Shown here: one piece after another, positions 35,178 to 57,674 of the stretch
Layout of the letters: each line of letters begins with the position of its first letter
How positions within the stretch are numbered: the stretch's first letter is position 1
NCBI GenBank assembly: GCA_965199715.1
Contig: OZ241322.1
Location: forward strand, 73,226-137,225
DNA from: Vicinamibacteria bacterium
Lineage (GTDB): Bacteria > Acidobacteriota > Vicinamibacteria > Marinacidobacterales > Marinacidobacteraceae
DNA length: 64,000 nucleotides
Direction of reading: 5' to 3'
Position numbers and translations under genes: made by a program
The notes under the pieces: model-generated
Seen by the model: only the letters and a program-made list of their open reading frames with translations
What the model was told of the DNA's origin: nothing
Database searches by the model: none

Positions 35178-35795
35178 TCAGGGGAGCCGCCGCGCCGCCA
35201 GCGCGACGAGCCCCGCCCCGACGAGGAGCGCGGCGCCGATCCGGTTCGCGGTCCGGCGCGACTCCGGGCTCGCGAGCCGTCCCCGCAATCCCGAGGCCAG
35301 CAGGATCCATCCCACGACCGCGATCCCCCCGAGAACCACGAACGTGGCTTCGAGGATTGCGAACTGTAGCGGCAACGGGCGCTCCGGCTCCACGAATTGC
35401 GGCAGGACCGCCATGAAGAAGACGATGCTCCTCGGGTTGATCGCGGTCACCACGAACGAGTCGAGGAACATGGCGCGCCCGGAGCCCGACCGCGCCTCGC
35501 CGCTCGCGTCCGGCTCGCTGCGCCAGCGGCGGACGCCGAGGACGATCAGGTACGCGCCGCCCGCCACGGCGAGCGTCCGGAAGAGCGCGTCCGAGAGATG
35601 CAGCGCCGCCGCCACGGCGGCGAGCGAGGCGGTCATCGCCACCACGTCGCCGAGCACCACGCCGGGCACGGTGAACCGCCCCGAACTCCGGCCGCTTCCG
35701 AGCGCGTAGCCGATCACCACGAGGATCGTCGGGCCGGGGACCATCATGAACGCCGTCGTGGCGGCGACCCACGCGAACCAGAGTTCGGGGGCCAA
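35178..35795 (-). CDS. LysE/RhtB-family amino-acid exporter
   Basis: Six-TM protein with 'MMVPGPTILVVIGYALGSG' and 'FVVTAINPRSIVFFMAVLPQF', typical of LysE/RhtB translocators. Confidence 0.8.
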   Translation of the reverse strand: MAPELWFAWVAATTAFMMVPGPTILVVIGYALGSGRSSGRFTVPGVVLGDVVAMTASLAAVAAALHLSDALFRTLAVAGGAYLIVLGVRRWRSEPDASGEARSGSGRAMFLDSFVVTAINPRSIVFFMAVLPQFVEPERPLPLQFAILEATFVVLGGIAVVGWILLASGLRGRLASPESRRTANRIGAALLVGAGLVALAARRLP

Positions 35796-35801
35796 GCGCG
35801 G

Positions 35802-36917
35802 TCAGGGAGTCGCGGCGGAGAGGCCGAAGACCGCGCCGTCCTGCGTGCCCACGACCAGGAACCCGTCCGTGACCGCCGGCGACCCCATGATCGCCGCCCC
35901 GAGGTGGTGCTCGGCGACCGGCGCGCCGGTCTCGAGGTCGAGCACGTGGAGGCGCCCGTCGGCGTTGCCGACGTACGCGCGGTCGCCCGCGATCGCGGGC
36001 GAGGAGTCGAACCGCGCGCCGCCGCGGAAGGTCCAGCGGGCCTCCCCCGACGCGCGGTCGAGCGCGTGGACGAGCTTGTCGCGTCCGGCGACGATCACGA
36101 GGTCGCCGCGGACCGCGGCCGAGGCGTAGAACGGGAAGTGGCGCTGCGGATGCTCGTAGGACCACCGCGGCGCCCCGGCGTCCAGATCCACCGCGAGCAC
36201 CTGGTTGTCGAACGTTCCGTAGAACGCGATCCCCGACGCGATCGCCGCCGAAGCCGCGGTGTAGCCGCCCGAGTCGAACCGGAACGCCTCGGCGCCGGTC
36301 GATAGCCGCACCCCCCGCAGGAACCCGTCGCAGCCGCTGATGTAGGCGATCCCGTCCCGGATCGCGGCGGTCGCGTGCACCGGCCCCTCGGTCTCGACCG
36401 AAAAGCGCAGCGCCCCGGTCTTCCGGTCGAGTGCGTAGAACTTCTGGTCGTAGCTGCCGATGAGCACGAGATCGCCCGACACCACCGGCGAGGCCTTGAT
36501 CTCGGCCCCGGTCGCGAAGGTCCAGCGCGGCTCGCCCGTCTCCGCGTCGAGGGCGTGGACGACGCCGAGGAGGTCCCCGATATACAGCAGCCCGCCCGCG
36601 ACCGCGGGGGAGGACTCCCCGAAGAGATCGTCCTCGCCGTCGGGGTCGGCGGACGGTTGGAAGCGCCAGCGCTCGGCGCCGGTCGCGAGGTCGAGCCGGA
36701 CCACGACGTCGGGAAGCGCCGAGACATAGACCGCGCCATCGACGACGGCGGGGGAGGACTCGACCGAGAACCCGAGCGGAGCGGTCCAGCGCACGTCGAG
36801 GTCGTCGGGAAGCGCCTCGGCGGCGACCCCGGTGAGGCCGGCGTCGCGGCGGAACTGCGGCCAGTCTCCGGCGGAGGCGGAGCCGGCGGCGAGGGCGAGG
36901 AGGAGGGTCAGGCGCAT
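35802..36917 (-). CDS. Secreted PQQ-like 8-bladed beta-propeller repeat protein (BamB-like fold), paralog 1
   Basis: Signal peptide plus 'DWPQFRRDAGLTG', then repeated 'G.VYVG..DG.L.ALD..TGE..W' blades. Start taken from the ORF track (M at codon 205). Confidence 0.8.
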   Translation of the reverse strand: MRLTLLLALAAGSASAGDWPQFRRDAGLTGVAAEALPDDLDVRWTAPLGFSVESSPAVVDGAVYVSALPDVVVRLDLATGAERWRFQPSADPDGEDDLFGESSPAVAGGLLYIGDLLGVVHALDAETGEPRWTFATGAEIKASPVVSGDLVLIGSYDQKFYALDRKTGALRFSVETEGPVHATAAIRDGIAYISGCDGFLRGVRLSTGAEAFRFDSGGYTAASAAIASGIAFYGTFDNQVLAVDLDAGAPRWSYEHPQRHFPFYASAAVRGDLVIVAGRDKLVHALDRASGEARWTFRGGARFDSSPAIAGDRAYVGNADGRLHVLDLETGAPVAEHHLGAAIMGSPAVTDGFLVVGTQDGAVFGLSAATP

Positions 36918-38032
36918 GCTCGGTAGATGTGGAGCGCGTCCTCGGCGGCGAAGGCGCGGGGGTTGTGCCGCCCGGTCCATTCGCGGGCGGCTTCGGCGGC
37001 GAGGTCGGGCAGCTCGCCGAGGCCGTGGTCGAGCCTTGGGGGAAGGCCGGCGGTCTCGATCCAGTCCTCGAGGAGATCCGCGAGGGTCGCCGCCGGATTC
37101 GGCCCCGGTTCGATCCCGGCGGCCTCGAGGAGCGCCCGGTAGCCGTCTTCCGCATCGGGGCCGTTCCAGCGGACCACCCGCGGCAGGGTGATCGCGAGCG
37201 CCTCGCCGTGGGGGACGCCGTAGCGGCGGGTCAACGGGTTTGCGGCGGCGTGTCCGGCGCCGAGCATGGAGCGCTCGATCGCGGCCCCCGCGAGAAACGC
37301 CCCGAGCTGCATGTCGGCCGGGGCCCCGCCGGGGAACGCCCGCGCCAGCAGCGCGAAGGCCGCCCGGCTGAGCGCGAGCGATTCGGGGGTGCGCGTCTTC
37401 GTCACGGCGGTCTCGACCGCGTGGGCCACCGCGTCGAAGCCGGCGGCGCGGGCGACGGCTTCGGGGGCCGAGCGGGTCAGCTCGGGGTCGAGCACTACGG
37501 CGCGGAACATGGCGTCCGGCGCCCCGCACGCCAGCTTGGCGTGGTCCCGGTCGCGCGAGATGAGCGCGTACGATTGCGCCTCGCTTCCGGTGCCGGCGGT
37601 CGTGGGCACGCCGAAGAGCGGAGGAAGCGGGCAGCGGCGGCGCCCGTGGCCCCGGTAGTCCTCCATCCGGCCCCCGCCCGCGAGCAGGAAGCCGATCCCC
37701 TTGGCCATGTCGAGCGAGCTTCCGCCGCCGCAGCCGACGAGGCAGTCGGCCCCGGTCTCCTTGGCGAAGGCGGCTCCCGCGGCGACCTGGCTCTCGGTCG
37801 GGTTCGCGCCGAAGTCGGAGAAGACGCGCGGCTCGCGCCCGGCCTCCCGCAGCGCTTCTTCGACCCGGCTCGCGATCCCGGCGCGGACGACGCCGGGGTC
37901 GGCGGCGACGAGCGGGCGCGCTCCCGTCCGTTCGGCCAGCGCCCGCAGGTCGGGCAGGACGTCCGGCGAGGGGTCGTCCAGCCGCCAGCTTCCGGCGGTC
38001 GCGCCCGGCCGCCGGGGGAATGCGCCGGTCAA
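36908..38032 (-). CDS. Iron-containing (group III) alcohol dehydrogenase
   Basis: 'CLVGCGGGSSLDMAKG' and the Fe-ADH His cluster ('HAVETAV', 'GVPHGEA'). Confidence 0.8.
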   Translation of the reverse strand: MTGAFPRRPGATAGSWRLDDPSPDVLPDLRALAERTGARPLVAADPGVVRAGIASRVEEALREAGREPRVFSDFGANPTESQVAAGAAFAKETGADCLVGCGGGSSLDMAKGIGFLLAGGGRMEDYRGHGRRRCPLPPLFGVPTTAGTGSEAQSYALISRDRDHAKLACGAPDAMFRAVVLDPELTRSAPEAVARAAGFDAVAHAVETAVTKTRTPESLALSRAAFALLARAFPGGAPADMQLGAFLAGAAIERSMLGAGHAAANPLTRRYGVPHGEALAITLPRVVRWNGPDAEDGYRALLEAAGIEPGPNPAATLADLLEDWIETAGLPPRLDHGLGELPDLAAEAAREWTGRHNPRAFAAEDALHIYRACA

Positions 38033-38038
38033 GCCGCC

Positions 38039-39430
38039 CTATTCGGCGATGGCGAAGAGCTGGTTGCGGCTCGCGATGTAGAGGGTCCCGTTCGCCGGGA
38101 CCACGCTCGAGTACACCGAGCTGCCCATGTTCATCTCGGCCAGGACTTCCTCGGTCGGGCCGGGTCGGAGCACGACCACGTCGCCGTCCTCGTCGCCGAG
38201 GTAGAGCTTGCCGTCCGCGACGACCGGCGATCCCCAGACGGCGGCGAAGGTGTCATGCACCCACAGCGGCTCGCCGGTCTCCATGTCGAGCGCGTGCAGG
38301 AAGCCGGAGAAGTCCGGCATGTACACGATCCCCTCGTGCGCCGCGGCGGTCGAGATCGAGCGGCGGATCACGTCGTAATGCCACAGCCGGCCCGAGTCGG
38401 TGACGTCGCCGCGCATCGTCGGGTCGATGGCGAAGAAGTGGCCCACGCCCTCCCCGTGCTCGGGGTCCTGCCCGTTCGCGATGAAGAGGCGGTCGTCGAG
38501 GATCACCGGGGTCGAGATCACGTTGTTGCGGGTGCGCGGCCACAGCGAGTCCTTGGGGTTCGTGTCGAAGGACCAAAGCAGCTCGCCGGTGTCGGCGACG
38601 TAGCCGCGCACCCAGCCGTCGCCCTCGCCCATGACGACCTGCGCCACGCCGCCGATCTCGGCCACTCCGGCGGAGGACCACTGGCCGTGGAGGATGTTCT
38701 CGCCCACGTGGTTCGCCTCCCAGACCAGCTCGCCGGTCAGCTTGTCGAGAGCGATGATGGCGGGGGCGCGGGGGGAGGGGACGGTGACGTGGGTCTCGTC
38801 CTGGCCGTTCGAGGTGTTGATGAACAGCAGGTTCCCCCACGAGACCGGGCTGGAGTTGGACATGTTGTGGGGGAATGCTCCGACCTCCTCCATCATGTCG
38901 AACCGCCACAGGACGTCGCCGTCCTGCGGGGCCTGGTAGGTCTCGCCGCTCCAGCCGTCGTTGCCGTCCGCCATCCCGTTCACGTCCGCCGCCAGCACCT
39001 CGCCCCGGTTCGTGACGTAGTAGAGGACGTCGCCCTCGACGAGCGGCGAGGAGCACACGCCCTGGAACGGCCAGTCGTTCACCCGGCCCGAAGCGAGCTT
39101 GTCCGAGACGAGCTGCCAGAGGAACTCGCCGGTGGCGGCGTCGAACGCCAGCATCACGCCCTTGTCGCCGGAGATCTCCTGGTCGTAGAGCGCCTCGTTG
39201 TTGGTCCCGACGAAGACCCGCCCGCCGGCGACGACCGGGTTCCCGTAGGTCTGCGAGCCGAGCGCCGCGACCCAGCGGACGTTCTCGCCGGAGCGCACGT
39301 CCCAGGTCAGCGGCAGCGGCGCCGGGGCGTCCGAGACCATGTTGCGGTCGGGGGTTCCGCCCCACATGGGCCAGTCCTGGGCCGCGGCGGGCGCGGCGAG
39401 AAGGAGGGCGGCGGAAACGATTCGGGACAT
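38039..39430 (-). CDS. Secreted PQQ-like beta-propeller repeat protein, paralog 2
   Basis: 'MSRIVSAALLLAAPAAAQDWPMWGGTPDRNM' plus propeller blades. ATG at 39430 verified. Confidence 0.8.
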   Translation of the reverse strand: MSRIVSAALLLAAPAAAQDWPMWGGTPDRNMVSDAPAPLPLTWDVRSGENVRWVAALGSQTYGNPVVAGGRVFVGTNNEALYDQEISGDKGVMLAFDAATGEFLWQLVSDKLASGRVNDWPFQGVCSSPLVEGDVLYYVTNRGEVLAADVNGMADGNDGWSGETYQAPQDGDVLWRFDMMEEVGAFPHNMSNSSPVSWGNLLFINTSNGQDETHVTVPSPRAPAIIALDKLTGELVWEANHVGENILHGQWSSAGVAEIGGVAQVVMGEGDGWVRGYVADTGELLWSFDTNPKDSLWPRTRNNVISTPVILDDRLFIANGQDPEHGEGVGHFFAIDPTMRGDVTDSGRLWHYDVIRRSISTAAAHEGIVYMPDFSGFLHALDMETGEPLWVHDTFAAVWGSPVVADGKLYLGDEDGDVVVLRPGPTEEVLAEMNMGSSVYSSVVPANGTLYIASRNQLFAIAE

Positions 39431-39438
39431 GGAGCCTC

Positions 39439-41598
39439 TCAGTTGCTCACGGGGCCGACCGTGACGTTGTCGAGGAAGATCTCCGCGGCGACGGCGTCGG
39501 CGAACACTCCTGGAGCGCCCTCGAGGTGCGGCAGCTCCTCCCGCCATTCGATCGTCCAGCCGTCGGGCTCCGGATCGCCGCGGCGCCAGACGCGGCCGCG
39601 GGCGACGACGTCCTCGGCGTCCTTGAACACCTCGAAGCGCATCGAGTACCAGGCGTCGGGTTCCCACGCGAAGGGAGTCGCGGTCGAGCGTCCGGGGGTG
39701 GCGTGCCACGAGTGGATCTCGAGGCGCTGGTGGTTGCCCATGAGGACCAACTGGTAGCGCTGGGCGACGAGGCCGACGTTGCCGAGCTGGCGGCGGCGTT
39801 CGGTGGCCATCACGTCGGCGGTCACCGCGTAGTTGCTGAGCTGCGGCGAGCCCATGAAGACCCGCGCCCGCCGCAGGAAGGGGTTGTCGGCGAGCTTCAC
39901 GAGCGTCCCGTCGCGCACGGCGTACTTCCCGGCCGCGTTCACCCACTGCGCGGGAACGGCGGCGTCCTCGGCGTCGAAGTCCCAGCTCCACGGAAGCGGC
40001 GGGACCACCCGGAAGCGGGCGGAGCCGGACAGGTCGCCCGCCCGGGCGGTCACCGCTCCGGCGCCCGCCGGCGCGTCCGCCGGAATCCGCAGCGCGCCGC
40101 CTTCGACCGATCCGGCGAACGCCTCCCACGCCGGATCGCCGGGAACGTCGGTCTCGCGGCCGCGGTCGTCGAAGGCGCGCACGGTCAGGGGAACCTCGTC
40201 GCCCGGGGCGAGGAGCGCCTCGGTGGGCGAGACCAGCAGCCGGACCGCCGGGCCGCCCGCCTCGGGCGCGGTGTCCGTCGCCGGCATGTCGTCCGAGGGA
40301 CGGTGGGCGCCGATCGCGTAGAGGTGGGCGTTCGAGACGAGATACACGAGGCCGTCGCTCACCGCGACCGAGGCGACGACCTCCTCCGGCTCGGTCTCGG
40401 AGCCGAGCAGGTCCTCATCGAGCACGGTCGCTCCTTCGGCCTCCGGCTTCAGGATGTAGAAGCGCCCGTTGCCGGTCCCCACCCACAGCTTGCCGTCGGC
40501 GAGCACCGGCGAGGCGCGCTGGATCGTGCCGAGGTTGCGGGTCCAGCGCCGCTCGCCGTCGCTCGGATCGAACGCCGCGAGGTTCGCGCTGTTGTCCATC
40601 CAGTAGAGGGTCTCGCCGTCGGTCACGCCGGACGAGTAGCCGCCGAGGAAACCCGGCGCCCGCCACAGCGCCGCCTCCTCGGCGATCTCGCCGGTCGAGC
40701 GGGCGTCGAGCGCCGCGAGCAGGCCCATGGTCGAGAAACTCACGTTTTCCTCGCCGTGGCTCACCACGACCGTGTCGCCGAAGAGGATCGCGCCGCTGTT
40801 CACTCCGCGCTTGCTCATCGGGTAGTGCCAGACCGGGTCGCCGGTCGCCGGATCGATCGCGTGGAAGGCGCCGTCCCCGCCGCCGACGAGCAGCAGTCGG
40901 CGGCCGCCGACCGTGCGGATCGAGGGCGGCGAGTAGGTGGTGTCGTAGGGGCGGGCGCCGGGGGCGCTCATCCAGCGCGCCGCGCCGGTGGTCTTCTCGA
41001 AGGCGAAGAAGCGCTGACTGCCGCGGGCGTGCGCGCCCCACGACGAGCTCACCCCGCTCACGATCACGACGTCGCCGTGGATCAGCGGCGACGGGGTGCG
41101 TCCGCCGTGGGTGCTGATGACGCCGAGCTCCTCCGACAGCGAGCGGCGCCAGCGGACCTCGCCGGTGGCCGCGTCGAACGCGGTCAGTTCCGCGCCGACG
41201 GTCAGGGAGAAGACGAGGCCGGACTCGGGATCCGCCGCCGGGGAGGCCCAGCCGGCGCGCCGGGGCGGGGCGTCCGAGTGGAAGACGTTCCGCCGGTGCT
41301 CCCACAGCAGCTCGCCGGTGCGGGCGTCGAGCGCGAGAAGCCGCTCCTGACGGGTCCCGCCGTCGCCCGAGGCGTTTTGCAGGAACAGTCGGTCGCCCAT
41401 GACCACCGGGGTGGAGCGCCCGCCGTAGGGAAGCCGGAACGCGAGGTTCTCGCCGTCCGGCGACCACGAGTCGGGAAGGCCGGTTTCGGCGGAGACGCCG
41501 TCTCGGGTCGGCCCCCGGACTTCCGGCCAGTCGGCCGCCGCGGATCCTGCCAACGACGCCGCGAGCGCGAGGAGGACGCCGGTACGCATGGCCCGCAT
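39439..41598 (-). CDS. Secreted PQQ-like beta-propeller + Big_2 (Ig-like) + DUF1080/LamG-like jelly-roll C-terminal domain protein, paralog 3
   Basis: 'MRAMRTGVLLALAASLAGSAAADWPEVRGPTRDG'. Propeller, then 'LLVSPTEALLAPGDEVPLTVRAFDDRG' (Big_2-like), then 'YAVRDGTLVKL...WYSMRFEVF...EIFLDNVTVGP' (concanavalin-like/DUF1080). Alternative start ATG 41589. Confidence 0.8.
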   Translation of the reverse strand: MRAMRTGVLLALAASLAGSAAADWPEVRGPTRDGVSAETGLPDSWSPDGENLAFRLPYGGRSTPVVMGDRLFLQNASGDGGTRQERLLALDARTGELLWEHRRNVFHSDAPPRRAGWASPAADPESGLVFSLTVGAELTAFDAATGEVRWRRSLSEELGVISTHGGRTPSPLIHGDVVIVSGVSSSWGAHARGSQRFFAFEKTTGAARWMSAPGARPYDTTYSPPSIRTVGGRRLLLVGGGDGAFHAIDPATGDPVWHYPMSKRGVNSGAILFGDTVVVSHGEENVSFSTMGLLAALDARSTGEIAEEAALWRAPGFLGGYSSGVTDGETLYWMDNSANLAAFDPSDGERRWTRNLGTIQRASPVLADGKLWVGTGNGRFYILKPEAEGATVLDEDLLGSETEPEEVVASVAVSDGLVYLVSNAHLYAIGAHRPSDDMPATDTAPEAGGPAVRLLVSPTEALLAPGDEVPLTVRAFDDRGRETDVPGDPAWEAFAGSVEGGALRIPADAPAGAGAVTARAGDLSGSARFRVVPPLPWSWDFDAEDAAVPAQWVNAAGKYAVRDGTLVKLADNPFLRRARVFMGSPQLSNYAVTADVMATERRRQLGNVGLVAQRYQLVLMGNHQRLEIHSWHATPGRSTATPFAWEPDAWYSMRFEVFKDAEDVVARGRVWRRGDPEPDGWTIEWREELPHLEGAPGVFADAVAAEIFLDNVTVGPVSN

Positions 41599-41625
41599 TC
41601 TATTGACCCGGCACAATACGCGGCG

Positions 41626-42936
41626 ATGCACCGAGCCGTCCTCGCGGCCCTTCTGGCGTCGCTGGCCGCGCCCGGCGCCGGACAGTGGCCCGGCTGGCGC
41701 GGTCCTTCCGCGAACGGCGTCTCGGAAGAGACCGGTCTCCCCGAGCGGATCACCGCCGGGGCCGAGGCGTGGAGCGTCGAGGTTCCCGGGCGCGGGCACT
41801 CGTCGCCGGTGGTCGAGGGCGGCCTCGTGTTCCTGACCGCGTCCGTCGAGGGCGAGGTCGTCCCCGGCCATGAGCCACCGATCCACTACCGGGACGGCGA
41901 GGTCTATCTCCACCCTGGCAGCGGATCGGGCGACCGCAGCCACGCGCTGCTCGCGCTCGCGTACGACGCCGAAACCGGGGCGGAGGCCTGGCGGCGGACG
42001 CTCCACGACGGGCCGGTGCACGACAACCGCTACCGCACGAACACCTACGCATCGCTGACCGCGCTGACCGACGGGGAGCGGGTCTATTTCTGGTTCGGCT
42101 CGCAGGGCCTTTACGCGCTGACGCTGGACGGCGAGCCGGTCTGGAGCCGCGACCTCGGCGACTTCGGCGACTGGGGGCTCGGCCACGGGATCTCGCCGGT
42201 GCTCCACGGCGATCTCCTGATCCTCGTCTGCGACGACGACGCCGGCGAGAAGTCGCAGATCTTCGCGGTCCATCGGAAGACCGGCGAGATCGCGTGGCGG
42301 ATCGGGCGGCGTGCGCGCAAGAGCTGGGGGACGCCGAGCCTTGTGCCGGTCGGCGACCGGACGCAGTTGGTGGTCGCGAGCTACGACCGGATCGCGGCCT
42401 ACGACCCGACGAGCGGCCGGGAAGTCTGGGGCGGGGCCGGCTTCGACTCGAACGTGGTCCACACGCCGGTGCATCTCGCCGTCGGCGACGACCGGCTGGT
42501 GTTCGTCTCGACCGGCTACCCCGACAAGGAGGTGCGGGCGCTGCGCCTGAGCCCCGGCCGCGCCGAGCCGACGCGCGAGTGGACGCACGCCCGGGGGACC
42601 GGGTACCTGCCGTCGGGGATCGCGTACGGGGGCGTACTGTTCGTGATCTCGGACGGCGGGGTCGTCACGGGGCTCGATCCGTTGACCGGCGCGGTCCATT
42701 TTCAGGGGCGGCCGCCGAACCCGGGCCGGTACCACGCCTCGCCGGTGGGGTACGAGGGGAAGGTGCTCATTGGGAGCCTCGAGGGCGACCTCACCGTCTT
42801 CCGCGCCGCCCCCGAGTTCGAGGTTCTTTCCACGGGGTCGCTGGACGAGGCGATCTGGGCGTCGCCCGCCATCGCCGACGGGACGCTGTTCCTGCGGACC
42901 GTGTCCCGGCTCTACGCCTTCCGGAGGGGGTCGTGA
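41626..42936 (+). CDS. Secreted PQQ-like beta-propeller repeat protein, paralog 4
   Basis: 'MHRAVLAALLASLAAPGAGQWPGWRGPSANGV...'. ATG 41626 verified. Divergent from paralog 3 across a 27-bp gap. Confidence 0.8.
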   Translation: MHRAVLAALLASLAAPGAGQWPGWRGPSANGVSEETGLPERITAGAEAWSVEVPGRGHSSPVVEGGLVFLTASVEGEVVPGHEPPIHYRDGEVYLHPGSGSGDRSHALLALAYDAETGAEAWRRTLHDGPVHDNRYRTNTYASLTALTDGERVYFWFGSQGLYALTLDGEPVWSRDLGDFGDWGLGHGISPVLHGDLLILVCDDDAGEKSQIFAVHRKTGEIAWRIGRRARKSWGTPSLVPVGDRTQLVVASYDRIAAYDPTSGREVWGGAGFDSNVVHTPVHLAVGDDRLVFVSTGYPDKEVRALRLSPGRAEPTREWTHARGTGYLPSGIAYGGVLFVISDGGVVTGLDPLTGAVHFQGRPPNPGRYHASPVGYEGKVLIGSLEGDLTVFRAAPEFEVLSTGSLDEAIWASPAIADGTLFLRTVSRLYAFRRGS

Positions 42937-44197
42937 AGGCGCTCGCGCTCGTCCTGCTCGTCGCGGCGGGGGGCGAGTGGCCCGGCTGGCGCGGTCCGGG
43001 AGGCCGGGGCGTCGCGGCGTCGCCGGCTCCGACCGAGTGGGGGCCGGAGCATCCGAACCTGCGGTGGCGGCGCGAGATTCCCGGCCGGGGGCACTCGTCG
43101 CCCATCGTGGCCGGGGATCTGGTTCTCCTGACCACCGGGATCGCCGGCGAGACCGTGCCCGGAGCCTCCGCCGTGACCCATCGCATGGGCGGCGAGGAGT
43201 TCGTGCATCCCGACAGCGTCGGAGCCGACCGGCGGGTCACGCTGCTGCTGCTGGCCTACGACCGCGAGACGGGCGAACCCCGCTGGGAGCGGACGGTCCG
43301 GGACGGCGCGCTCCCCCACGACGCGCGCCATCGCGTGGGCTCCTACGCGAACCCCACGCCGCTGTTCGACGGCGAGCGCGTCCTCGCGTGGTTCGGCTCG
43401 CAGGGCCTCCACGCCTTCGACTTCGACGGCGAGCCGCTCTGGTCGCTCGACCTCGGCGGCGTCGCGACGCTCGGGATGGGCGTCGGGGTCTCGCCGCTCC
43501 TCGTCCCGTCGGAGGGGCTGGTCGTGGTTCTCAACGACGCGAGCGACAAAGGCTCGTTCATCGCGGCGGTGGACGCCGCGACCGGGGCCGTGCGCTGGCG
43601 GAAGGAACGGACCCAGCCGGTCGGCTGGGCCTCGCCGATCCTCGTCGGCGACCGGATCGTGACCGCGGGAACGGACGACGTCGTGGCCTACGACGCGGCG
43701 ACCGGGGCCGAGGTCTGGCGCGCCGAGGGCCTCCATGCGAACGCGGTCCCGAGCCCGGTCGCGGACGACGGCGTCGTGGTGGTCGCGACCGGCTATCCCA
43801 GCAAGAAGGTCATGGGGATCGACGCCGCCGACGGAAGCGCGCTGTGGATCCACGCCCGGGGCCAGGGCTACGTGCCGTCGCCGATCCTCTACCGGGGGAT
43901 CGTCCGGCTCGTCAGCGACGGCGGAATCCTGACCGCGCTCGACGCCCGGACCGGAGCGGTCCTCCACGACCCGGGGCGCATGCCGACCCCCGGCAAGTTC
44001 TTCGCGTCGCCGGTGGCGGCCGGGGACTTCCTCTACCTGACCAGCGAGGACGGCGACACTCACGTCGTCCCCGCCGGGCCGGAGTTCCGGGTCGAGGCCA
44101 CGAACTCGCTGGACGAGCCGGTGTTCGCCTCGCCCGCCATCCACGACGGGGCGCTGTACCTGCGCAGCGTCTCCTCCCTCTACTCGGTGGCCGAACC

Positions 44198-44201
<4 letters not shown>
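42933..44201 (+). CDS. Secreted PQQ-like beta-propeller repeat protein, paralog 5
   Basis: GTG 42933 overlaps the upstream stop (GTGA). 'VKALALVLLVAAGGEWPGWRGPGGRGV'. About 50% identical to paralog 4 over its full length. Confidence 0.8.
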
Positions 44202-46071
<1,870 letters not shown>

Positions 46072-46075
<4 letters not shown>

Positions 46076-47487
46076 CGCTGCTGTTTCTCGCGCTGCTCGC
46101 CGTGGCGCCCGCCGAGTGGGACCGCTTCCGCGGCCCCAACGGGAGCGGACGCGGCCCCGACGGGTCGCTGCCCGTGGAATTCACCCCCGACCGGGAGCTC
46201 TTTCGGGTTCCGGTCCCGCTCGGGCACTCGTCGCCGATCCTCGCCGGCGGGCGGGTGCATTTGACCGCGTTCCGGGACGACGAGTTCGTGACCTTCGCGC
46301 TCGACATGGACACCGGCGAGACCCTGTGGGAGTCGATCGCCGCGAGGCCGCGCTTCACTGAGGTGGACTCGCGCAACAACGCCGCGTCGCCGAGCGTCGC
46401 GGCGACCCCGGACGAGGTCGTCGCGTTCTTTCCCGATCTCGGCGTGATCGCCTACGACGGGGCGGGGGAGGAGCGCTGGCGGCTCCCGCTCGGCCCGTTC
46501 GACAACCTCTACGGGATGGGCGCCTCGCCGATCTTCGCGGGCGAGTACGTGGTGCTCGTGCTCGACCAGAACCTGGGCTCGGAGATCCTCGCGATCCATC
46601 GGGACGCTGGAACCGTGGCGTGGCGGACTCCCCGGCCCGAGGCCACGAGCGGCCATTCCACGCCGATCCTCCGGGACGCCGCGGGCGGGGTCGAAATCCT
46701 CGCGCCGGGGAGCTTCCTGCTCACCGCCTACGCGCTGGAGACCGGGACGCCGAGCTGGTGGGTGCGCGGGCTGCCGTGGGAGATGAAGTCCACGCCGGTG
46801 ATGGCCGGCGGCCTCGTGTACGTGAACGGCTACGGGGCGCCGCTGAACGAGCCGGGCAACCAGCGCACCGCGCCGAGCTTCGCGGACGCGCTCGAGGCGT
46901 CGGACGCCGACGGCGACGGGGCGATCTGCCGCGACGAGGCCGAGGGGCATCCGGCGTCGTGGTTTGGCGTGATCGACCTCAGTGGGGACGACGCGCTCCA
47001 GGCCTCCGAATGGGCCTATTACGAGGCGGTGCTCGCGTCGCGCAACGGGGTGATCGCCGTCCGTCCGCCGGGCGTCGGCGAGTCGGGAGACGTGACCGAC
47101 GCGAACACCGTCTGGACCTACCACCGCCGCGCGCCGCAGCTCCCGTCGCCGCTCGAAATCGGGGGCGTGCTGTACCTCGTGAACGACGGCGGGATCGTGA
47201 CCGCGCTCGACCCCGAAGAGGGGGTCATGCTGTCGCAGAACCGGCTGCGGGGCGCGGTGGACGCCTATTACGCCTCGCCGGTGGCCGCCGACGGGAAGAT
47301 CTTCTTCGTGAGCGAGCTCGGCATGGTCGCGGTGACCCGGCCGCTCGAGCCGGGCGAGGAGTCGTCCGAGCTGGAGGTGCTCCACGTGAACCACCTCGAG
47401 GAGGCGGTGTACGCGACGCCCGCGATCGCGCCGTCGCGCCTCTACATCCGGACGGTCGAGCACCTGATCGCGATCACGGGGGAGTAG
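46072..47487 (+). CDS. Secreted PQQ-like beta-propeller protein with inserted EF-hand-like Ca-binding loops, paralog 6
   Basis: GTG 46072 (GTGA overlap). 'VTLLFLALLAVAPAEWDRFRGPNGSG'. Insertion 'DADGDGAICRDEAEG...DLSGDDALQASEW' resembles paired EF-hand DxDxDG loops. Confidence 0.8.
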
Positions 47488-47488
47488 C

Positions 47489-49621
47489 GTGGTCCTCCTG
47501 CTGCTGGCGCTCGCCCTCCAGCCGGACCCCGGCGCCGCGTTGCTGCAAGCCGCCGGCGACGGCGACGCGGCGGCGGTCCGGGAGCTGCTGGACGCGGGAG
47601 CGCCGGTCAACGCCGAGAACCGCTACGGCGCCACGCCGCTCTTCTTCGCGGCGGAGCGCGGCCACGTCGGGATCGTCCGGATGCTGCTGGACGCCGGCGC
47701 GGACGCCGCCCGGCGCGACCGGTTCTACCAGATGACGGCGCTGACCCGGGCGCTCGGGGCCGACCGCCGCGAGGCGGCGCTGCTGCTGATCGACCACGGC
47801 TCCGGCGAAGTCGGGTCGGCGCTGGTGTTCGCCGCGCGGGGCGGCGACGTCGAGCTTCTCGAGGCGGCGCTCGCGAACGGGACGTTCTTCCTCGAGGATC
47901 TGGAGGCGGCGCGGGACGCGGGCGTGGGCGCGATCCGGGAGCGTCTGGCGGCCGTCGTCGCCGAGCCGCGTCCGGTGGAGCCGGCGATCGCGCCCGGAGC
48001 GGTGGCCGGGCGGTACTTGCGCGAGGCCGACCGGGACGGCGTGCTGGTCCGGGCGGCCGGCGACGGGATCGAGGCCCGGTTCTTCACCGGCGAGGACGAG
48101 CCGGGCGAGCCGGTGCGGCTCGATCCGTCGGGCGAGCGCAGCTTCTCGGCCGAGGGACTGACGCTCGTCTTTCCCGGCCGCGGCGGCATGATCGAGCGGC
48201 TCGTCGTGGATCGCGGGGGGGAGATGCGCTCCTTCGAGCCGGTCGGCGAGCTGGAGGGGCGGGCGGAGGCGGACGTGGAGCCGGAGGAGGAGCGGGCGCC
48301 GGCGGCGGATCCGGTGGCTCCGCTGACGCCGGGACCGTGGCCGCAGTTCCGCGGGCCGCGCGGCTCGGGGATCGCCGACGGGCAGGGAACCCCGATCCGC
48401 TGGAGCGCCGAGACCGGCGAGGGGATCCGCTGGGAGGCCGAGCTTCCGGGGCTCGGCGTGTCCAGCCCGATCATCCATGGCGACCGGGTCTTCGCGGTGA
48501 CCGCGGCGAGCGTGACCGGGGACACGGAGTTCCGGATCGGCCTCTACGGCGACGTCGCGCCGGTCGAGAACGAGACCGAGCACGAGTTCGCGCTGCGGGC
48601 GCTCGATCTTTCGACCGGAGAGCCGCTCTGGACGACCGAGCTGCATCGGGGCGTCCCGAAGACGCTGCGGCACACCAAGTCCAGCCAGGCGAACGCCACG
48701 CCGGCGACCGACGGCGAGCGGATCGTCACCGTGCTCGGCAGCGTCGGGCTCCTGTTCGCGCACGACCTCGACGGGAATCTGCTGTGGGAGCGGGACGTGG
48801 GGCCGCTGAACAGCGGCTGGTTCTACGACCCCGCGTTCCAGTGGGGGCACGCATCCTCCCCGGTGATCCACGAGGACACGGTGATCCTGCTCGCCGACGT
48901 CCACGGCGACGCCTTCCTCGGGGCGTTCGACCTCGAGACCGGCGTGCCGGTCTGGCGCGCCGAGCGCAACGAGGTCTCGACGTTCTCCACGCCGCTCGTG
49001 CATGACGCGGGCGGCGCGCCGGAGGTCGTCGTCAACGGCACGGTCATCGCCGGCTACGACGCTTCCACGGGAGCCGAGCGCTGGCGGCTCGGCCCCAACT
49101 CGGAGATCCCGATCGGAGTGCCGCTCCGGGGCGACGGCCTCCTGTACGTGCAGGCCGGGTATCCGCCGGTCCGCCCGATCTACGCGATCCGTCCGGGGAT
49201 GACCGGCGACCTCACGCTGCCCCTGGGCGAGGACGCGAGCGAGGCGATCGCGTGGAGCCACGACCGGGGCGGCGTGTACATCCCGTCGCCGCTGCTCTAC
49301 CGGGGCGTCCTGTACCTGAACGCGAACAACGGCAGGCTCGCGGCCTACAGCGCCGAGACCGGGGAGCGCATCTACCGCGCGCGCATCGGCGGCGTCGGCG
49401 GCTCGTATTCGGCCTCGCCCATCGCCGCCGACGGACGGCTGTACTTCACGTCCGAGGAGGGCGAGACCTTCGTGATCCGCGCCGGACGCGAGTACGCGCT
49501 CCTCGCCCGGAACACCGTGGATCGGATCGTCATGGCGAGCCCGGCGGCGAGCGACGGGGTTCTGGTGATCCGGGCGATCGACCGGTTGTTCGGGATCTCC
49601 GGCGGGGACGCGCATCCTTGA
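47489..49621 (+). CDS. Ankyrin-repeat + PQQ-like beta-propeller fusion protein, paralog 7
   Basis: N-terminal 'GDAAAVRELLDAGAPVNAENRYGATPLFFAAERGHVGIVRMLLDAGADA' (ANK repeats), an acidic linker, then 'PWPQFRGPRGSG' plus propeller blades. Confidence 0.8.
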   Translation: MVLLLLALALQPDPGAALLQAAGDGDAAAVRELLDAGAPVNAENRYGATPLFFAAERGHVGIVRMLLDAGADAARRDRFYQMTALTRALGADRREAALLLIDHGSGEVGSALVFAARGGDVELLEAALANGTFFLEDLEAARDAGVGAIRERLAAVVAEPRPVEPAIAPGAVAGRYLREADRDGVLVRAAGDGIEARFFTGEDEPGEPVRLDPSGERSFSAEGLTLVFPGRGGMIERLVVDRGGEMRSFEPVGELEGRAEADVEPEEERAPAADPVAPLTPGPWPQFRGPRGSGIADGQGTPIRWSAETGEGIRWEAELPGLGVSSPIIHGDRVFAVTAASVTGDTEFRIGLYGDVAPVENETEHEFALRALDLSTGEPLWTTELHRGVPKTLRHTKSSQANATPATDGERIVTVLGSVGLLFAHDLDGNLLWERDVGPLNSGWFYDPAFQWGHASSPVIHEDTVILLADVHGDAFLGAFDLETGVPVWRAERNEVSTFSTPLVHDAGGAPEVVVNGTVIAGYDASTGAERWRLGPNSEIPIGVPLRGDGLLYVQAGYPPVRPIYAIRPGMTGDLTLPLGEDASEAIAWSHDRGGVYIPSPLLYRGVLYLNANNGRLAAYSAETGERIYRARIGGVGGSYSASPIAADGRLYFTSEEGETFVIRAGREYALLARNTVDRIVMASPAASDGVLVIRAIDRLFGISGGDAHP

Positions 49622-49676
49622 ACGACGCCGAATCGGACGCGCGCTACCTCTCGCTCGTCATCGATCCGGTGCGCCG

Positions 49677-50544
49677 GTGCGCGTCCCGCCCCGACGCGGT
49701 CTCGGCGACGCCGCAGCGATGGCGCCGCTGCCGGGAATTTCGAACGTCGAGCGCTGGTGGAACGAGCCGGAGCTCGCGTCCTGCGGCGGATGCTCGCCGC
49801 GATCCACGCCCACCCGCTCGACTCGGAGGGCGTCCGCGACCTGCTGCTCGTCGCGTTCTGCCGGACGATGATGGGTCTGTCCAACGCCGCGTTCCCCCAC
49901 CAGTCGATGTCCTTCCGGGCGACGAACGGCGCGATGCGGACGCTGTTCGAGCGAAGCGTCGGGGAGCGCCATCGGGAGCGGTTCGAGCGGGATTTCGCGA
50001 CGGTGCTGAAGGGCGCGACCGCTCCGCCCGGGGCCGGGGCGCGGACGGGTCGTCCTGGCGGACGCGCGATCGCCCGAATCCGCGTCCGGGGCCGACCTGC
50101 TCATCGCCTCGCCGCCGACCCGAATCGAATGTCCTACGTGCGGGAGCTTCGGCCCTGCATGTACTGGCTCGGATTCCTCGACAACCCCCGGCAGGCCGGA
50201 GAGCTTGATTGGAAGGCGATCGGCGGAACCTGGGGGGTCGCGACGAGCCGCTTGGCCTCGTGGGAAAGCAGCGGCGACGTCTTCCTGCCGCCGAGCCCGC
50301 CCGGCCTCCTCGGACGGATCGGAAACGGCGGAACCTCCGGCGGCGGTCTGTCGCGTTACGTCGGGAAGTGCTTCGAGGACGTCTGGCGACACATCGCCGC
50401 GACCTCGACCTGGATGCGCCCCGACGCGGACGGGACATGCTGCGCGAGGCCGGCGGGGACGACGTGACCGTGACCGCCATCAGGAAGCGCAACTCGAAGA
50501 AGGAGTTGTTCGAGTTCGCCGTGAGCGGTCGGGTGCCGCGATGA
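49677..50544 (+). pseudogene. Decayed gene of unknown function (at least two frameshifts; possible nucleic-acid-modifying enzyme remnant)
   Basis: Protein-like sequence shifts between frames: frame 0 'MAPLPGISNVERWWNEPELA', then frame 2 'RVLRRMLAAIHAHPLDSEGVRDLLLVAFCRTMMGLSNAAFPHQSMSFRATNG...', then frame 1 '...DMLREAGGDDVTVTAIRKRNSKKELFEFAVSGRVPR'. No single intact ORF. Confidence 0.2.
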
Positions 50545-51075
50545 ACCACCCGTTGGTCGAGGCCCTGCTGATCGTCGCCGTCGCGGTCGGGCTGCTCGGC
50601 TGGGCGACCTGGGAGTTCTTCAAGGAGGTTGCGTCGAACCGCTGACCGCCGCTTCGTCCGTGCGTGGGGCCTCGTCGAGATCGGCCAACGCCACCCGGAC
50701 GAAGGCGTCGGGGAGCGTCCCGGCGTTTGCGCACCGGGCGCGGCGGTGCGTGCCGTCGAGGCTGACCGAACAAGGGACCTGTCCGTCCGAACGACGCCGG
50801 ATGAGTACCGACCGCCGGTGCCCGCCCGGCGCTTGGATCGTGACCTCCCCGTAGTGCGTCGGGTACGTTTCCAGTCGGCAAGGACGCAGTTGGTGCACCA
50901 TCGGCAGCAGTCGCCGGGCGTTCGCCATCGCCCGACCGGAGGGCGCCGGGAATCCTTTCTTCCCGGGCCTCCGCCGGCGCGTCCTCGAGATCGGACAGCG
51001 CCGCTGCCAGATCGGGAGTCTCCACCGCATCCACGTCGGAAAACTAGCGAACCCCCCTTCGGGCATGATTCGGCG

Positions 51076-52440
51076 ATGCGCCCGACCCCGCTCCTCCTCC
51101 TCCTCCTCGCCGCCGCGTGCGGCCCCGCCGCCGTCCCCGAACCGGACCCGTACGGAGTCCCGGGCGCGAAGAAGCGGTTCGAGATCCGGCGCGACGTCGT
51201 CGTCGGCAAGCTGGAGGCGGCGCTCGGGCCGGCGATGCGTGCCCACGGGATCGATCTCTGGCTCGTGCTCGACCGGGAGAACAACTACGACCCGCTCCAT
51301 GAGGAGGTCGGCGGCGGCTTCTCCGGCGTCCGGGGCGCGTACATCTTCCACGACCGGGGCGGGGATCGTCCCGAGCGCATCTACATCGGCTCGCACGAAC
51401 ATCCGGGCAACTCGGTGGTCGGGCAGGCGTTCGACGAGACGCTCTACTACGGCTACCACCCGGACGGGATCACGCCGCACCTGCGGGCGGCTATCGAGTC
51501 GCGGGACCCCGAACGGATCGGCGTGAACACGTCGCACACGCTCCCCGAAGCGGACGGGCTCACCGCGGGTCTCCGGAACTTCCTCGAGGACGCGCTCGGG
51601 CCGGAGTACGCGCCCCGCCTCGTCTCCGCCGAGCTTCTGGTCCGGGACTTCCGCCTCGCGCGCACCGAGGCCGAGACCCGCGCCTACCGAAAGGCGCTCG
51701 AGTGGACCGCGCGCTGGATGACCGAGACGCTGCGGGAGATCGAGCCGGGGGTCACGACCGCCGAGGACGTGGCCTGGCGCCTGCAGGACCGCGCCCGGGA
51801 GCTCGGCCTCACCGGCGGCGGCACGGTCCGGGTGGTCCGGGAAGGGGAGCTGCTCCCGATCCACGATCCGGACGTCGCGCTCCAGCCGGGCGACGTCGTC
51901 GGGATCGACGGCGGGCTCAAGTACCTGCACTTCGCCGTGGACATCAAGCGGACCGCCTATCTCCTGAAACCCGGCGAGACCGAGCTTCCGCCCGCGCTCG
52001 CTTCGGCGTGGGAGGACACGGTTCGCTTCGGCGAGCGCTACGCCTCGATGATGCTTCCGGGAACGGTCGGCCACGAACTCTGGTCGGCGCTGGGCGCCGA
52101 GGCGACGGCCGCCGGATACCGCAGCGTGGGACCCGACGCGGGCGGCGATGCGGTCACGACCACCGACCCCGAGGTCGGCGTGTACGGGCACTCGGTCGGC
52201 AACGTCGCCCACGACATCGGCGCCCGCGTCGCCGACAACCTGCCGTTCGCCTACGGGGACCGCGTGGGCTTCTCGCTCGTCGCCGACGAGTGGGTCTCGA
52301 TCGAGTTCCACATGAGCACGCCCATCCCCGATTGGGGCGGCCGGACGTGGTATGCCCGCTTCGAGGAGACCGCGCAGGTCACGCCGGAGGGCGCCGAGTG
52401 GCTCATCCCGTTCCAGCGCGAGATCCTCCTCGTACCGTGA
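51076..52440 (+). CDS. Lipoprotein M24-family metallopeptidase (creatinase/prolidase fold)
   Basis: 'MRPTPLLLLLLAAACGP' lipobox. Pita-bread-fold region 'GDVVGIDGGLKYLHFAVDIKRTAYL...GHSVGNVAHDIG'. ATG 51076 verified. Confidence 0.7.
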   Translation: MRPTPLLLLLLAAACGPAAVPEPDPYGVPGAKKRFEIRRDVVVGKLEAALGPAMRAHGIDLWLVLDRENNYDPLHEEVGGGFSGVRGAYIFHDRGGDRPERIYIGSHEHPGNSVVGQAFDETLYYGYHPDGITPHLRAAIESRDPERIGVNTSHTLPEADGLTAGLRNFLEDALGPEYAPRLVSAELLVRDFRLARTEAETRAYRKALEWTARWMTETLREIEPGVTTAEDVAWRLQDRARELGLTGGGTVRVVREGELLPIHDPDVALQPGDVVGIDGGLKYLHFAVDIKRTAYLLKPGETELPPALASAWEDTVRFGERYASMMLPGTVGHELWSALGAEATAAGYRSVGPDAGGDAVTTTDPEVGVYGHSVGNVAHDIGARVADNLPFAYGDRVGFSLVADEWVSIEFHMSTPIPDWGGRTWYARFEETAQVTPEGAEWLIPFQREILLVP

Positions 52441-53480: not shown

Positions 53481-53499
53481 CGGCGCGGAGGTTCTACTG

Positions 53500-57658: not shown

Positions 57659-57674
57659 ATAAACTCACAATGAC

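Follow-up and report, generated by a model that had tools for sequence, protein, structure and literature searches.

A conserved cluster of exported PQQ_2-type beta-propellers in the Acidobacteriota as a candidate periplasmic ligand-recognition assembly

The 64-kb stretch of Vicinamibacteria (Acidobacteriota) chromosome analysed here, in the following called the window, carries two five-gene arms that point away from each other, one on the minus strand from position 41598 down to 35178 and one on the plus strand from 41626 to 49621. Most of these genes, as well as the gene n9 further along the plus strand, encode exported beta-propeller proteins of the PQQ_2 type (PQQ, pyrroloquinoline quinone). 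Our work shows that the propellers are ancient paralogs which have been kept together across the Acidobacteriota, and we tentatively propose that they form an assembly for ligand recognition in the periplasm. At the GC content of the window, 73%, open reading frames (ORFs) alone are uninformative; the models in Table 1 were derived from third-position GC frame analysis, the frame plot, inspection of start codons, and Pfam, and these gave one consistent model. The first-pass annotation of the sequence had described two five-gene arms radiating from a 27-bp gap, and this gene order was borne out by the frame analysis and Pfam. The count of eight propellers in the cluster plus a ninth was one too high: the ten-gene stretch contains seven, and a tblastn search of the window with all paralogs identified exactly eight, n9 included.

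Table 1. Genes and other features of the propeller cluster in the window (Fe-ADH, iron-type alcohol dehydrogenase; Ig, immunoglobulin; ConA, concanavalin A).
Feature	Position	Strand	Description	Family evidence
m1	35178..35795	-	LysE-type exporter	PF01810, 91 bits
m2	35802..36917	-	PQQ_2 propeller, 371 aa, exported	PF13360, 142 bits
m3	36908..38032	-	Fe-ADH, cytoplasmic	PF00465 and PF25137
m4	38039..39430	-	PQQ_2 eight-bladed propeller, 463 aa, exported	
m5	39439..41598	-	PQQ_2 propeller with predicted Ig-like and ConA-like lectin domains, 719 aa, exported	
Divergent intergenic region	41599..41625		27 bp	
p1	41626..42936	+	PQQ_2 propeller, 436 aa, exported	PF13360, 96 bits
p2	42933..44201	+	PQQ_2 propeller, 422 aa, exported	PF13360, 114 bits
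p3	44198..46075	+	S9 serine peptidase (acylaminoacyl-peptidase-like), exported	PF00326, 161 bits, and PD40
p4	46072..47487	+	PQQ_2 propeller with inserted EF-hand pair, 471 aa, exported	PF13360, 73 bits
p5	47489..49621	+	Ankyrin repeats, 150-aa linker domain and PQQ_2 propeller, 710 aa, exported	Ank_2/Ank_4, PF13360
Insert between p5 and n9	49622..53499	+	Lineage-specific	
n9	53500..54825	+	PQQ_2 propeller, 441 aa, exported	PF13360, 123 bits
TRAP transporter	54807..57664	-	Fused permease (54807-56780) and TAXI solute-binding protein (56696-57664)	TIGR02123, 425 bits; TIGR02122, 245 bits

All eight propellers are members of the family PF13360, with scores between 73 and 142 bits as compared to a gathering cutoff of 27.6. 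Each of them starts with a short, hydrophobic, signal-like N-terminus that is followed by the motif W(P/D)x(F/W/V)(R/G)(G/R), which in p5 is located at residue 284, past the ankyrin part. The combination of a signal peptide and a WP.(F/W)RG-type motif that had been noticed before is shared by all propellers, with a slightly looser motif. All paralogs and their orthologs have a Sec signal peptide, and no lipobox cysteine was found within it or immediately behind it in any of the paralogs or of the orthologs that were inspected; the Fe-ADH has no signal peptide either in the window or in the orthologs. Eight blades, as had been claimed for all paralogs, are seen in the structure model of m4; for the other seven proteins, this number would follow from homology and length. 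The genes, nearly all of which had been called translationally coupled, are closely spaced: the plus arm has three 4-nt overlaps and one 1-nt spacer, and the minus arm has spacers of 8, 6 and 6 nt, the last of them between m2 and the downstream m1, as well as a 10-nt overlap of m3 with the start of m2.

The arrangement of the propeller genes is conserved far beyond the close relatives of the window. A metagenome scan with an alignment of m4 yielded 80 loci with 61-73% identity, and together with three loci from other classes (L089 from the Pyrinomonadaceae, L090 from the Bryobacteraceae, and L091; L numbers denote loci on other contigs) they make up a set of 83 m4-containing loci, in which m4 is 61-75% identical to the protein of the window. 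The same kind of scan with the Fe-ADH of the window gave 244 pattern matches, none of which was confirmed. The three loci from other classes repeat the order m5-m4-FeADH-m2, and L089 and L091 also have a divergent arm with further propellers and an ankyrin gene. Among the 83 loci, m5 is located directly upstream of m4 in 55 of the 56 that could be evaluated, m2 lies downstream of m4 in 48 of 52, and the Fe-ADH gene is found between the two in 27 of these 48 loci and is absent from this position in 21. A divergent arm of the p type (p4, p5, n9, or p1/p2-type genes) is present in 18 of 29 loci. The median identity to the proteins of the window is 64% for m4, 46% for m5, 48% for m2, and 48% for the Fe-ADH, and across classes m4 is 61-86% identical as compared to 45-55% for m5, the Fe-ADH and m2, which completes the core triad as its third gene. 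Among themselves, the paralogs share only 22-35% of their residues, with the exception of p1 and p2 (47%), and a neighbour-joining tree of the propeller domains resolves clean ortholog clades for m2, m4, m5, p5, p1/p2, n9, and p4. Since each paralog has an ortholog lineage of its own, the paralogy is ancient, and the set has been held together by selection, with no recent expansion. The conserved core, as judged from gene order and phylogeny, is m5-m4-(Fe-ADH)-m2 plus the p4/p5/n9 arm; p1 and p2 are old tandem duplicates, and this duplication, the S9 peptidase, and the LysE exporter are lineage-specific additions.

This conservation bears on the idea that the clustering has no functional meaning and reflects a lineage-specific tandem expansion around unrelated genes. 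Such an explanation could refer to the tandem duplicates p1 and p2 at 47% identity and to the S9, LysE, M24, GFO and defence genes that come and go inside the cluster; however, paralogs that share no more than 22-35% of their residues have orthologs of 45-85% identity in the same order across classes, and m5 and m4 are neighbours in all but one of the evaluable loci, so that we regard this explanation as extremely improbable. The clustering is far beyond chance, with one-to-one orthologs grouped likewise in dozens of other contigs. The earlier view that the genes form a dedicated propeller set rather than scattered BamB housekeeping genes thus holds from near relatives to other classes of the Acidobacteriota: scattering of the paralogs, which had been named as the observation that would speak against it, was not seen, and synteny is kept across classes. 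The functional unit was drawn differently in the first-pass annotation, which had included all ten genes and had taken the peptidase, the alcohol dehydrogenase, and the exporter as evidence for a processing system. What remains of this proposal is the dedicated and conserved module, which is far older and more widespread than the sequence alone could show. The peptidase and the exporter are peripheral: the S9 peptidase is found outside of such clusters in 79 of 80 cases, and LysE accompanies the cluster only in L002 and L082. The Fe-ADH is a facultative member and is absent in 21 of 48 loci. Three observations on core genes may be added. In the Pyrinomonadaceae locus L089 (8929-9966), m5 and m4 are separated by an inserted O-methyltransferase gene (Methyltransf_2 plus dimerisation domain); a fusion protein of the m4 type, P0387, carries a C-terminal methyltransferase domain; and L138 (1622-4431) and L156 (8554-12000) have two m4 genes in direct tandem, the upstream one with 53-54% and the downstream one with 63-64% identity.

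The relatives of the window illustrate how the cluster is built up. The S9 peptidase has its best genome match, with 81% identity, on chromosome OZ244068.1 of a metagenome-assembled Vicinamibacteria genome (L002), and a Logan assembly contains an identical contig. PQQ_2 genes are lacking next to S9 in 79 of its 80 ortholog loci, L002 being the only one with propellers there, and this peptidase was therefore ruled out as a synteny anchor or core member and is considered a late recruit; it is also missing from the cluster in L082, L085, L086, and L091. A graded series of relatives (L082 to L088) was obtained with p4 orthologs of falling identity as probes, and the loci were scored by tblastn. 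L002 contains LysE-m2-FeADH-m4 and p1-S9-p4 and lacks m5, p2 and p5; an AccI restriction enzyme and a methylase are encoded between its arms. In L082 (p4 identity 83%), LysE-m2-FeADH-m4-m5 lies opposite p1-p4-p5, followed by n9, without S9 and p2. L083 and L084 (77% and 70%) have p1-p2-S9-p4, then mobile or defence genes, and p5-n9, and L084 also has FeADH-m4-m5. In L085 (56%), p4-p5-n9 are together and m5 is encoded on the other strand, about 8 kb upstream, with unrelated genes (aminotransferase, MacAB) in between. L086 (55%; GC content 62%) has m2-FeADH-m4-m5 opposite DUF3179-p4-p5-n9, followed by TRAP genes, and L087 and L088 (52% and 50%) have a solitary p4. Taken gene by gene, p4 is a member of the cluster in L002, L082-L086, and L091; LysE orthologs occupy the position seen in the window only in L002 and L082; p1 orthologs are present in L002, L082, L083, and L084, and p2 orthologs in L083 and L084, with none in L002 and L082; loci of the Blastocatellia type have a single p1/p2-type gene. 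In L088 (10001-11515; contig with 52% GC, GCA_029261995.1), the signal peptide of the solitary p4-type protein ends in a lipobox-like LMAC, which sets it apart from all acidobacterial copies.

The orthologs of n9 (59-85% identity) are located near p5 in L082-L086 and L091 and adjoin it directly in L084, L085, L086, and L091. As every paralog has its own ortholog, n9 is considered an ancestral member of the cluster, and it apparently is the ancestral last gene of the plus arm. In the window, it is separated from p5 by a 3.9-kb insert that is absent from L084-L086 and L091 and that encodes an arginine-rich hypothetical protein of 225 aa without a Pfam match (49790-50467), an M24 peptidase (51076-52440), and a GFO/IDH/MocA oxidoreductase (52437-53480). 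Two other ORFs of this region require comment: the one at 52352-53500 does not follow the coding frame and matches no Pfam family, and the 281-aa ORF at 49622-50467 showed no homology to the 279-aa gene between p4 and p5 of L082. Inserts of defence or mobile genes inside the cluster are frequent (L002 5940-8472; L083 3446-3967 and 11480-13216; L084 11502-14603; L082 14442-15647) and comprise AccI with an N6 methylase, KwaA (Kiwa), AAA_15 ATPases with methyltransferases, and an HNH-methylase fusion. Given these repeated insertions, the intergenic gaps of the cluster tolerate insertion and behave as hot spots. DUF3179 genes are found at the head of the p4 arm in L085 (1714-2712), L086 (8976-9923), and L091 (6444-7070), split into two ORFs in L085 and L086; in these distant loci of the Vicinamibacteria type, this position is that of p1/p2/S9 in the window.

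Of all proteins of the cluster, m4 is the most conserved. Its best 120 database matches are all at least 65% identical and include proteins from Vicinamibacteria, Bryobacteraceae, and Pyrinomonadaceae. The AlphaFold2 model of m4 (predicted local distance difference test, pLDDT, 84) has eight sets of four strands and is closed by the N-terminal strand; its best fold matches are BamB, tetrathionate hydrolase and PedH, all with 14-20% identity, and the TM-score for BamB is about 0.62 (query-normalised). A search of the PDB with the m4 profile gave repeat-level matches only, in which the PQQ-ligand residues could not be aligned. When the invariant columns of the m4 family alignment were placed on the model by its strand order, 78 of the 164 positions in the D-A and B-C loops (48%) proved to be invariant, among them 39 polar or aromatic residues, as compared to 17 of 77 (22%) in the opposite loops and 47 of 170 (28%) in the strands. 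Loops that are more conserved than the core suggest one functional face.

The relatives of m4 outside of its own ortholog group point to the kind of function that this face may have. In an exhaustive search of 1.84 billion cluster representatives, the ortholog group of m4 collapses into a handful of clusters, and the next matches are propellers with 35-54% identity to m4. The best 150 matches (representatives at 50% identity) were classified: 72 of them are in proteins of more than 800 residues, 37 begin with a four-transmembrane-segment transducer of the BlaR1-type Peptidase_M56, nine have a Ser/Thr kinase and a single transmembrane segment, often with WD40 repeats, and 48 are stand-alone proteins. 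The propeller follows the last transmembrane segment in both types of fusion and is therefore extracytoplasmic. According to the alignment, the hallmark motifs of m4 are kept in the fused forms: DWPxWGG, GTNN, GRVxDWP, HNMSNxS, NTSNGxDExH, and LHGQWSS, and in addition GDGW, DPEHGEG, RGD(I/V)S, DFSGxxH, and GDEDGD. The simplest reading of the sensor position and the kept face would be that m4 is a ligand-binding module as well. The other propeller of the minus arm, m2, has regular repeats and is the most BamB-like paralog; its matches in the PDB are Cake designs and BamB, at about 1e-19.

Several members of the cluster carry accessory modules that could contribute to binding. For m5, a Big2 and a DUF1080 domain had been proposed. 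Membership in either family found no support in the sequence searches: Pfam found no family at E<=1 for residues 400-719, neither Big_2 (PF02368) nor DUF1080 (PF06439), and a sequence search of the PDB with the C-terminus gave no match at E<=10; at the level of the fold, the proposal of Ig-like and lectin-like parts is supported by the structure model. The C-terminal module of 320 aa is kept in 112 proteins, every organism-named one of which is acidobacterial, and the longer ones also contain PQQ_2. Its model (pLDDT 91) shows an Ig-like sandwich and a ConA-like jelly roll, Foldseek matched it to tandems of Big_2 and the carbohydrate-binding module CBM56 (7R3T and 7QUZ), to legume lectins, and to ERGIC-53, and it thus resembles the jelly rolls of carbohydrate-binding proteins and glycanases. 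In p4, two canonical EF-hand loops, DADGDGAICRDE and DLSGDDALQASE, lie at residues 278 and 302 and fit the pattern D-x-[DNS]-x-[DNS]-...-[ED]. The insert that contains them (residues 278-313) matches Pfam EF-hand_5 with an E value of 4e-4 when taken alone, although the score of 20.1 bits is below the threshold of 25.9; many of the p4 orthologs (50-57% identity) have matches to the EF-hand families PF13202, PF00036 or PF13499. The ankyrin repeats of p5 score above the Pfam cutoff, with 51-54 bits for Ank_2 and 49-53 bits for Ank_4, and the N-termini of its orthologs are clear signal peptides; both the EF-hand loops of p4 and the ankyrin repeats of p5 had been recognised in the first reading of the sequence. 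In loci of the Blastocatellia type, the ankyrin part is a separate gene (Ank plus DUF3471) next to the propeller gene; DUF3471 is present in the separate ankyrin protein of L100 and was not detected in the linker of p5 in the window.

The three other genes of the two arms encode proteins of other families. The Fe-ADH m3 matches PF00465 with 132 bits and PF25137 with 65 bits and has intact GGGS, D..AH, and PHG motifs; its closest solved relatives are the lactaldehyde reductase FucO and NAD methanol dehydrogenase, at about 130 bits, and it is below the cutoff of all NCBIfam equivalogs (e.g., ErcA 178 versus 550 bits, lactaldehyde reductase 159 versus 523). In the S9 peptidase p3, the nucleophile motif GGSYGG is located at residue 478, an HGF motif is seen in the tail, and the best solved relative is the amino acyl peptidase 5L8S (1e-65). 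The exporter m1 has sub-threshold matches to homoserine/threonine efflux models.

Based on these results, we suggest that the cluster might encode a periplasmic multi-propeller assembly for ligand recognition, in which m4 would recognise the ligand and m5 would act as the glycan-binding partner of m4. This is the interpretation to which we incline, tentatively and with somewhat more doubt than confidence. Distinct Sec-exported, non-lipoprotein, BamB-like eight-bladed propellers would act together in the periplasm or the envelope, and m4 would bind a conserved ligand rather than perform PQQ redox chemistry. A module of the carbohydrate-binding type (Ig-like plus ConA-like lectin) would be contributed by m5, p4 would add Ca2+-dependent behaviour, and p5 an ankyrin surface for the docking of proteins. 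The ligand might contain a glycan or be another conserved ligand of the envelope or the environment. Products or signals would then be handed to nearby uptake systems, i. e. TRAP-TAXI in the window and SSF symporters or TonB receptors elsewhere, and in about half of the lineages they might reach a cytoplasmic step catalysed by the Fe-ADH. In the Vicinamibacteria lineage of the window, the module has been extended by the LysE exporter, by the S9 peptidase, and by the duplication that gave rise to p1 and p2.

Several points weigh against this idea. First, the step from homologous sensor domains to a binding subunit is made by analogy, and the fused homologs of m4 include only one member with a named organism, which belongs to the Planctomycetota. 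Second, the assignment of the D-A and B-C loops to the top face would follow from the canonical propeller topology rather than from coordinates, and a conserved polar face suits the active site of an enzyme equally well, with tetrathionate hydrolase and PedH among the matches. Third, genes for transporters, TonB receptors, and peptidases are numerous in the Acidobacteriota, and those near the cluster differ from locus to locus, so that their association with the cluster may be incidental. Finally, 21 of 48 loci have the operon without the Fe-ADH, which is thus dispensable there.

The second of these points leads to a different reading that we consider doubtful: the propellers, above all m4, could be periplasmic enzymes without a cofactor or with only a metal that attack a polymer or convert a small molecule, comparable to beta-propeller polysaccharide lyases or tetrathionate hydrolase, m5 would target them to the substrate via its lectin domain, and the Fe-ADH would metabolise the imported product. 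The highly conserved loop face of m4 has many His, Asp, Glu, Asn, Gln, Arg, and Trp residues, the best matches in both structure and sequence include tetrathionate hydrolase, the layout of m5 with a propeller, an Ig-like and a CBM-like part resembles that of carbohydrate-active enzymes, and transporters and a cytoplasmic dehydrogenase are encoded close by. However, the nearest relatives of m4 beyond its ortholog group are mostly extracytoplasmic domains of BlaR1-type proteins and kinases, the usual position of a sensor, no characterised catalytic family reaches its curated cutoff, and catalytic residues cannot be named.

In a wider form of the ligand-recognition idea, which we put forward with more reserve, the triad m5-m4-m2 and the p4/p5/n9 arm might constitute an unrecognised periplasmic machine, and m4 might define a new subfamily of ligand-sensing propellers that is plugged into BlaR1 or kinase transducers in other bacteria, including at least one planctomycete. 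If this is true, an abundant soil phylum would have a new envelope system, the ligand of which would be the input signal for a large class of orphan membrane sensors, and a single ligand or activity would account for the operon as well as for the orphan sensor family. The operon is compact and can be recovered from hundreds of soil, sediment, and aquatic contigs, and m4 is still annotated as "BamB" or "PQQ-binding-like"; for all these proteins, the automatic labels "BamB" and "PQQ" are misleading. No description of the cluster was found in the literature, in agreement with the earlier statement that such an array has no described function.

The label "PQQ" raises the question of whether the propellers are true PQQ- or lanthanide-dependent quinoprotein dehydrogenases that use scavenged PQQ. 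They do belong to the PQQ propeller superfamily and have weak matches to TIGR03075 and PF01011, and the N-terminal strand W-P-x-W-G-G is similar to the N-terminus of quinoproteins. On the other hand, the scores are 24-85 bits for TIGR03075 versus a cutoff of 480 and 26-42 bits for TIGR03074 versus 833, they also fall short of the cutoff for membrane glucose/quinate dehydrogenases, and no match to PF01011 extends over more than about 170 of the 595 positions. Moreover, the stand-alone propellers have 371-471 aa as compared to about 560-600 aa for catalytic PQQ propellers, none of the paralogs contains a CC dipeptide, with zero or one cysteine in each, the 64-kb window contains neither a cytochrome c partner nor pqq genes nor PqqU, and the best fold match of m4 is BamB. 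The Vicinamibacteria are the class within the Acidobacteria that has been reported to carry the PqqU importer in the absence of PQQ synthesis (bioRxiv 10.1101/2024.06.04.597491), which would fit the use of scavenged PQQ. The TonB receptors next to the cluster in relatives were considered as PqqU candidates and rejected: they are of the siderophore type and reach 37-50 bits versus 1200. All in all, a function as quinoprotein dehydrogenases seems very unlikely to us.

The label "BamB" implies that the proteins are factors for the assembly of outer membrane proteins that have multiplied to serve many large TonB-dependent barrels, and this seems quite unlikely as well. BamB is the best structural match of m4 and a full-length match of m2 at 1e-19, the phylum-wide conservation would suit a housekeeping role, and genes for TonB-dependent receptors adjoin the cluster in at least 15 loci (9 + 6). 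Yet with TIGR03300 the propellers reach 35-175 bits (m2, 175) versus 285, and with NF008351 31-136 bits versus 423, with no match for p4; the lipobox cysteine is absent both in the window and in the orthologs, the window contains no bam genes, and m4-type domains occur on signal transducers. The identity of 61-86% for m4 across classes is presumably also high for a BamB protein. A third family, TIGR04528 (acido-empty-quinoprotein group A), which we take to comprise multi-copy acidobacterial relatives of PQQ propellers that lack PQQ, was rejected since seven paralogs score only 21-56 bits versus 650 and p4 has no match. None of the proteins of the window scores as a quinoprotein dehydrogenase, as BamB, or as a member of TIGR04528.

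The genes next to the cluster fit a role in nutrient capture. SSF symporters are encoded near it in 14 loci, M28/M20 peptidases are recurrent neighbours, and a TRAP permease adjoins n9 in the window, L082, L084, and L086 (DctM-type in the relatives); in the window, it is convergent on n9. An NMT1_3/TAXI binding protein is encoded beside this permease in the window, L084 and L086. These neighbours are common in Acidobacteriota and none of them is universal, and therefore they lend little weight to nutrient capture; the TRAP-TAXI system is a recurrent neighbour of n9 and at most a candidate member of the system. The flank beyond is shared even with the distant locus L086 (20848-21416, versus 57663-59748 in the window): the TRAP/TAXI genes are accompanied by a gene for a small thioredoxin-like protein and one for a D-Ala-D-Ala carboxypeptidase of family S13. 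In a soil clade with about 65% GC that has no Fe-ADH in the operon, m2 is followed (L124, L128, L136, L140, L148, L153, L161, L169) by a recurrent set of genes for a radical-SAM protein (HemN-like), a thioesterase (4HBT), a Trp-halogenase- or geranylgeranyl-reductase-type FAD enzyme, and an EamA transporter; this set resembles a small-molecule pathway. The rest of the window is ordinary chromosome that encodes, among others, MetH, ArgRS, BshC, MTHFR, and an S41 peptidase. An ORF of 925 aa on the plus strand (3-2780), which runs off the left edge, has a weak match to the PilY1 beta-propeller (PF05567, E value 4.5e-6, just under the cutoff) and would be a further large protein of the propeller kind that has no relation to the PQQ_2 set.

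The 27-bp gap between the two arms contains an inverted repeat, TATTG-N8-CAATA, and -10-like boxes near both start codons. In the window, L082, and L084, a CA(C/T)AAT box precedes the start of p1 by 6-8 nt (in the window, CACAAT ends 8 nt before the ATG of p1), and TAGAAT overlaps the ATG of m5 at 41598 and sits 7 nt before a second ATG at 41589, which may be the true start of m5. The spacing of these boxes suggests leaderless transcripts, and thus both divergent genes may be leaderless. The gap had been regarded as a divergent control region, but it is not a conserved element: it is split by the restriction-modification insert in L002 and measures from 109 bp to about 450 bp in other relatives, and no promoter or operator motif upstream of m5 is common to the 53 loci compared. 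There are only clade-specific upstream motifs, such as TTACGTATTCTAC in low-GC soil loci. The 27-bp gap is apparently specific to the closest relatives of the window.

How do the propellers compare to known systems? With BamB (YfgL), an extracytoplasmic protein-binding scaffold without a cofactor, they have PF13360 and the eight-bladed fold in common; they differ by the lack of a lipoprotein signal, by scores below the cutoff, by the presence of at least six paralog lineages in one cluster, by their lectin, EF-hand, and ankyrin extras, and by the far higher conservation of m4. The PQQ- and lanthanide-dependent alcohol dehydrogenases MxaF, XoxF, ExaA and PedH share the propeller superfamily and the periplasmic location, whereas the proteins of the window are about 100-200 residues shorter and match only in fragments and below the cutoff. 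The TIGR04528 model spans 493 positions, and the proteins of the window form a separate family. Tetrathionate hydrolase of Acidithiobacillus and Metallosphaera is an eight-bladed PQQ_2-like propeller that is located in the periplasm or outside of the cell and is free of PQQ, and this family carries the same kind of annotation (PMC11818568); the identity to it is 16-18%, no catalytic residues in common were identified, and the cluster has no sulfur-oxidation context. Further counterparts are the propeller sensor domains of transmembrane signal transducers, i. e. of BlaR1/MecR1-type M56 proteins and of Ser/Thr kinases such as AfsK and PknD. Whereas the propellers of the window are free-standing and secreted, and their cluster is devoid of a transducer, a kinase, or a BlaI-type repressor, m4-type domains in M56 and kinase proteins share 35-54% of their residues and the same loop motifs with m4, and m2 weakly matches the propeller model of AfsK.

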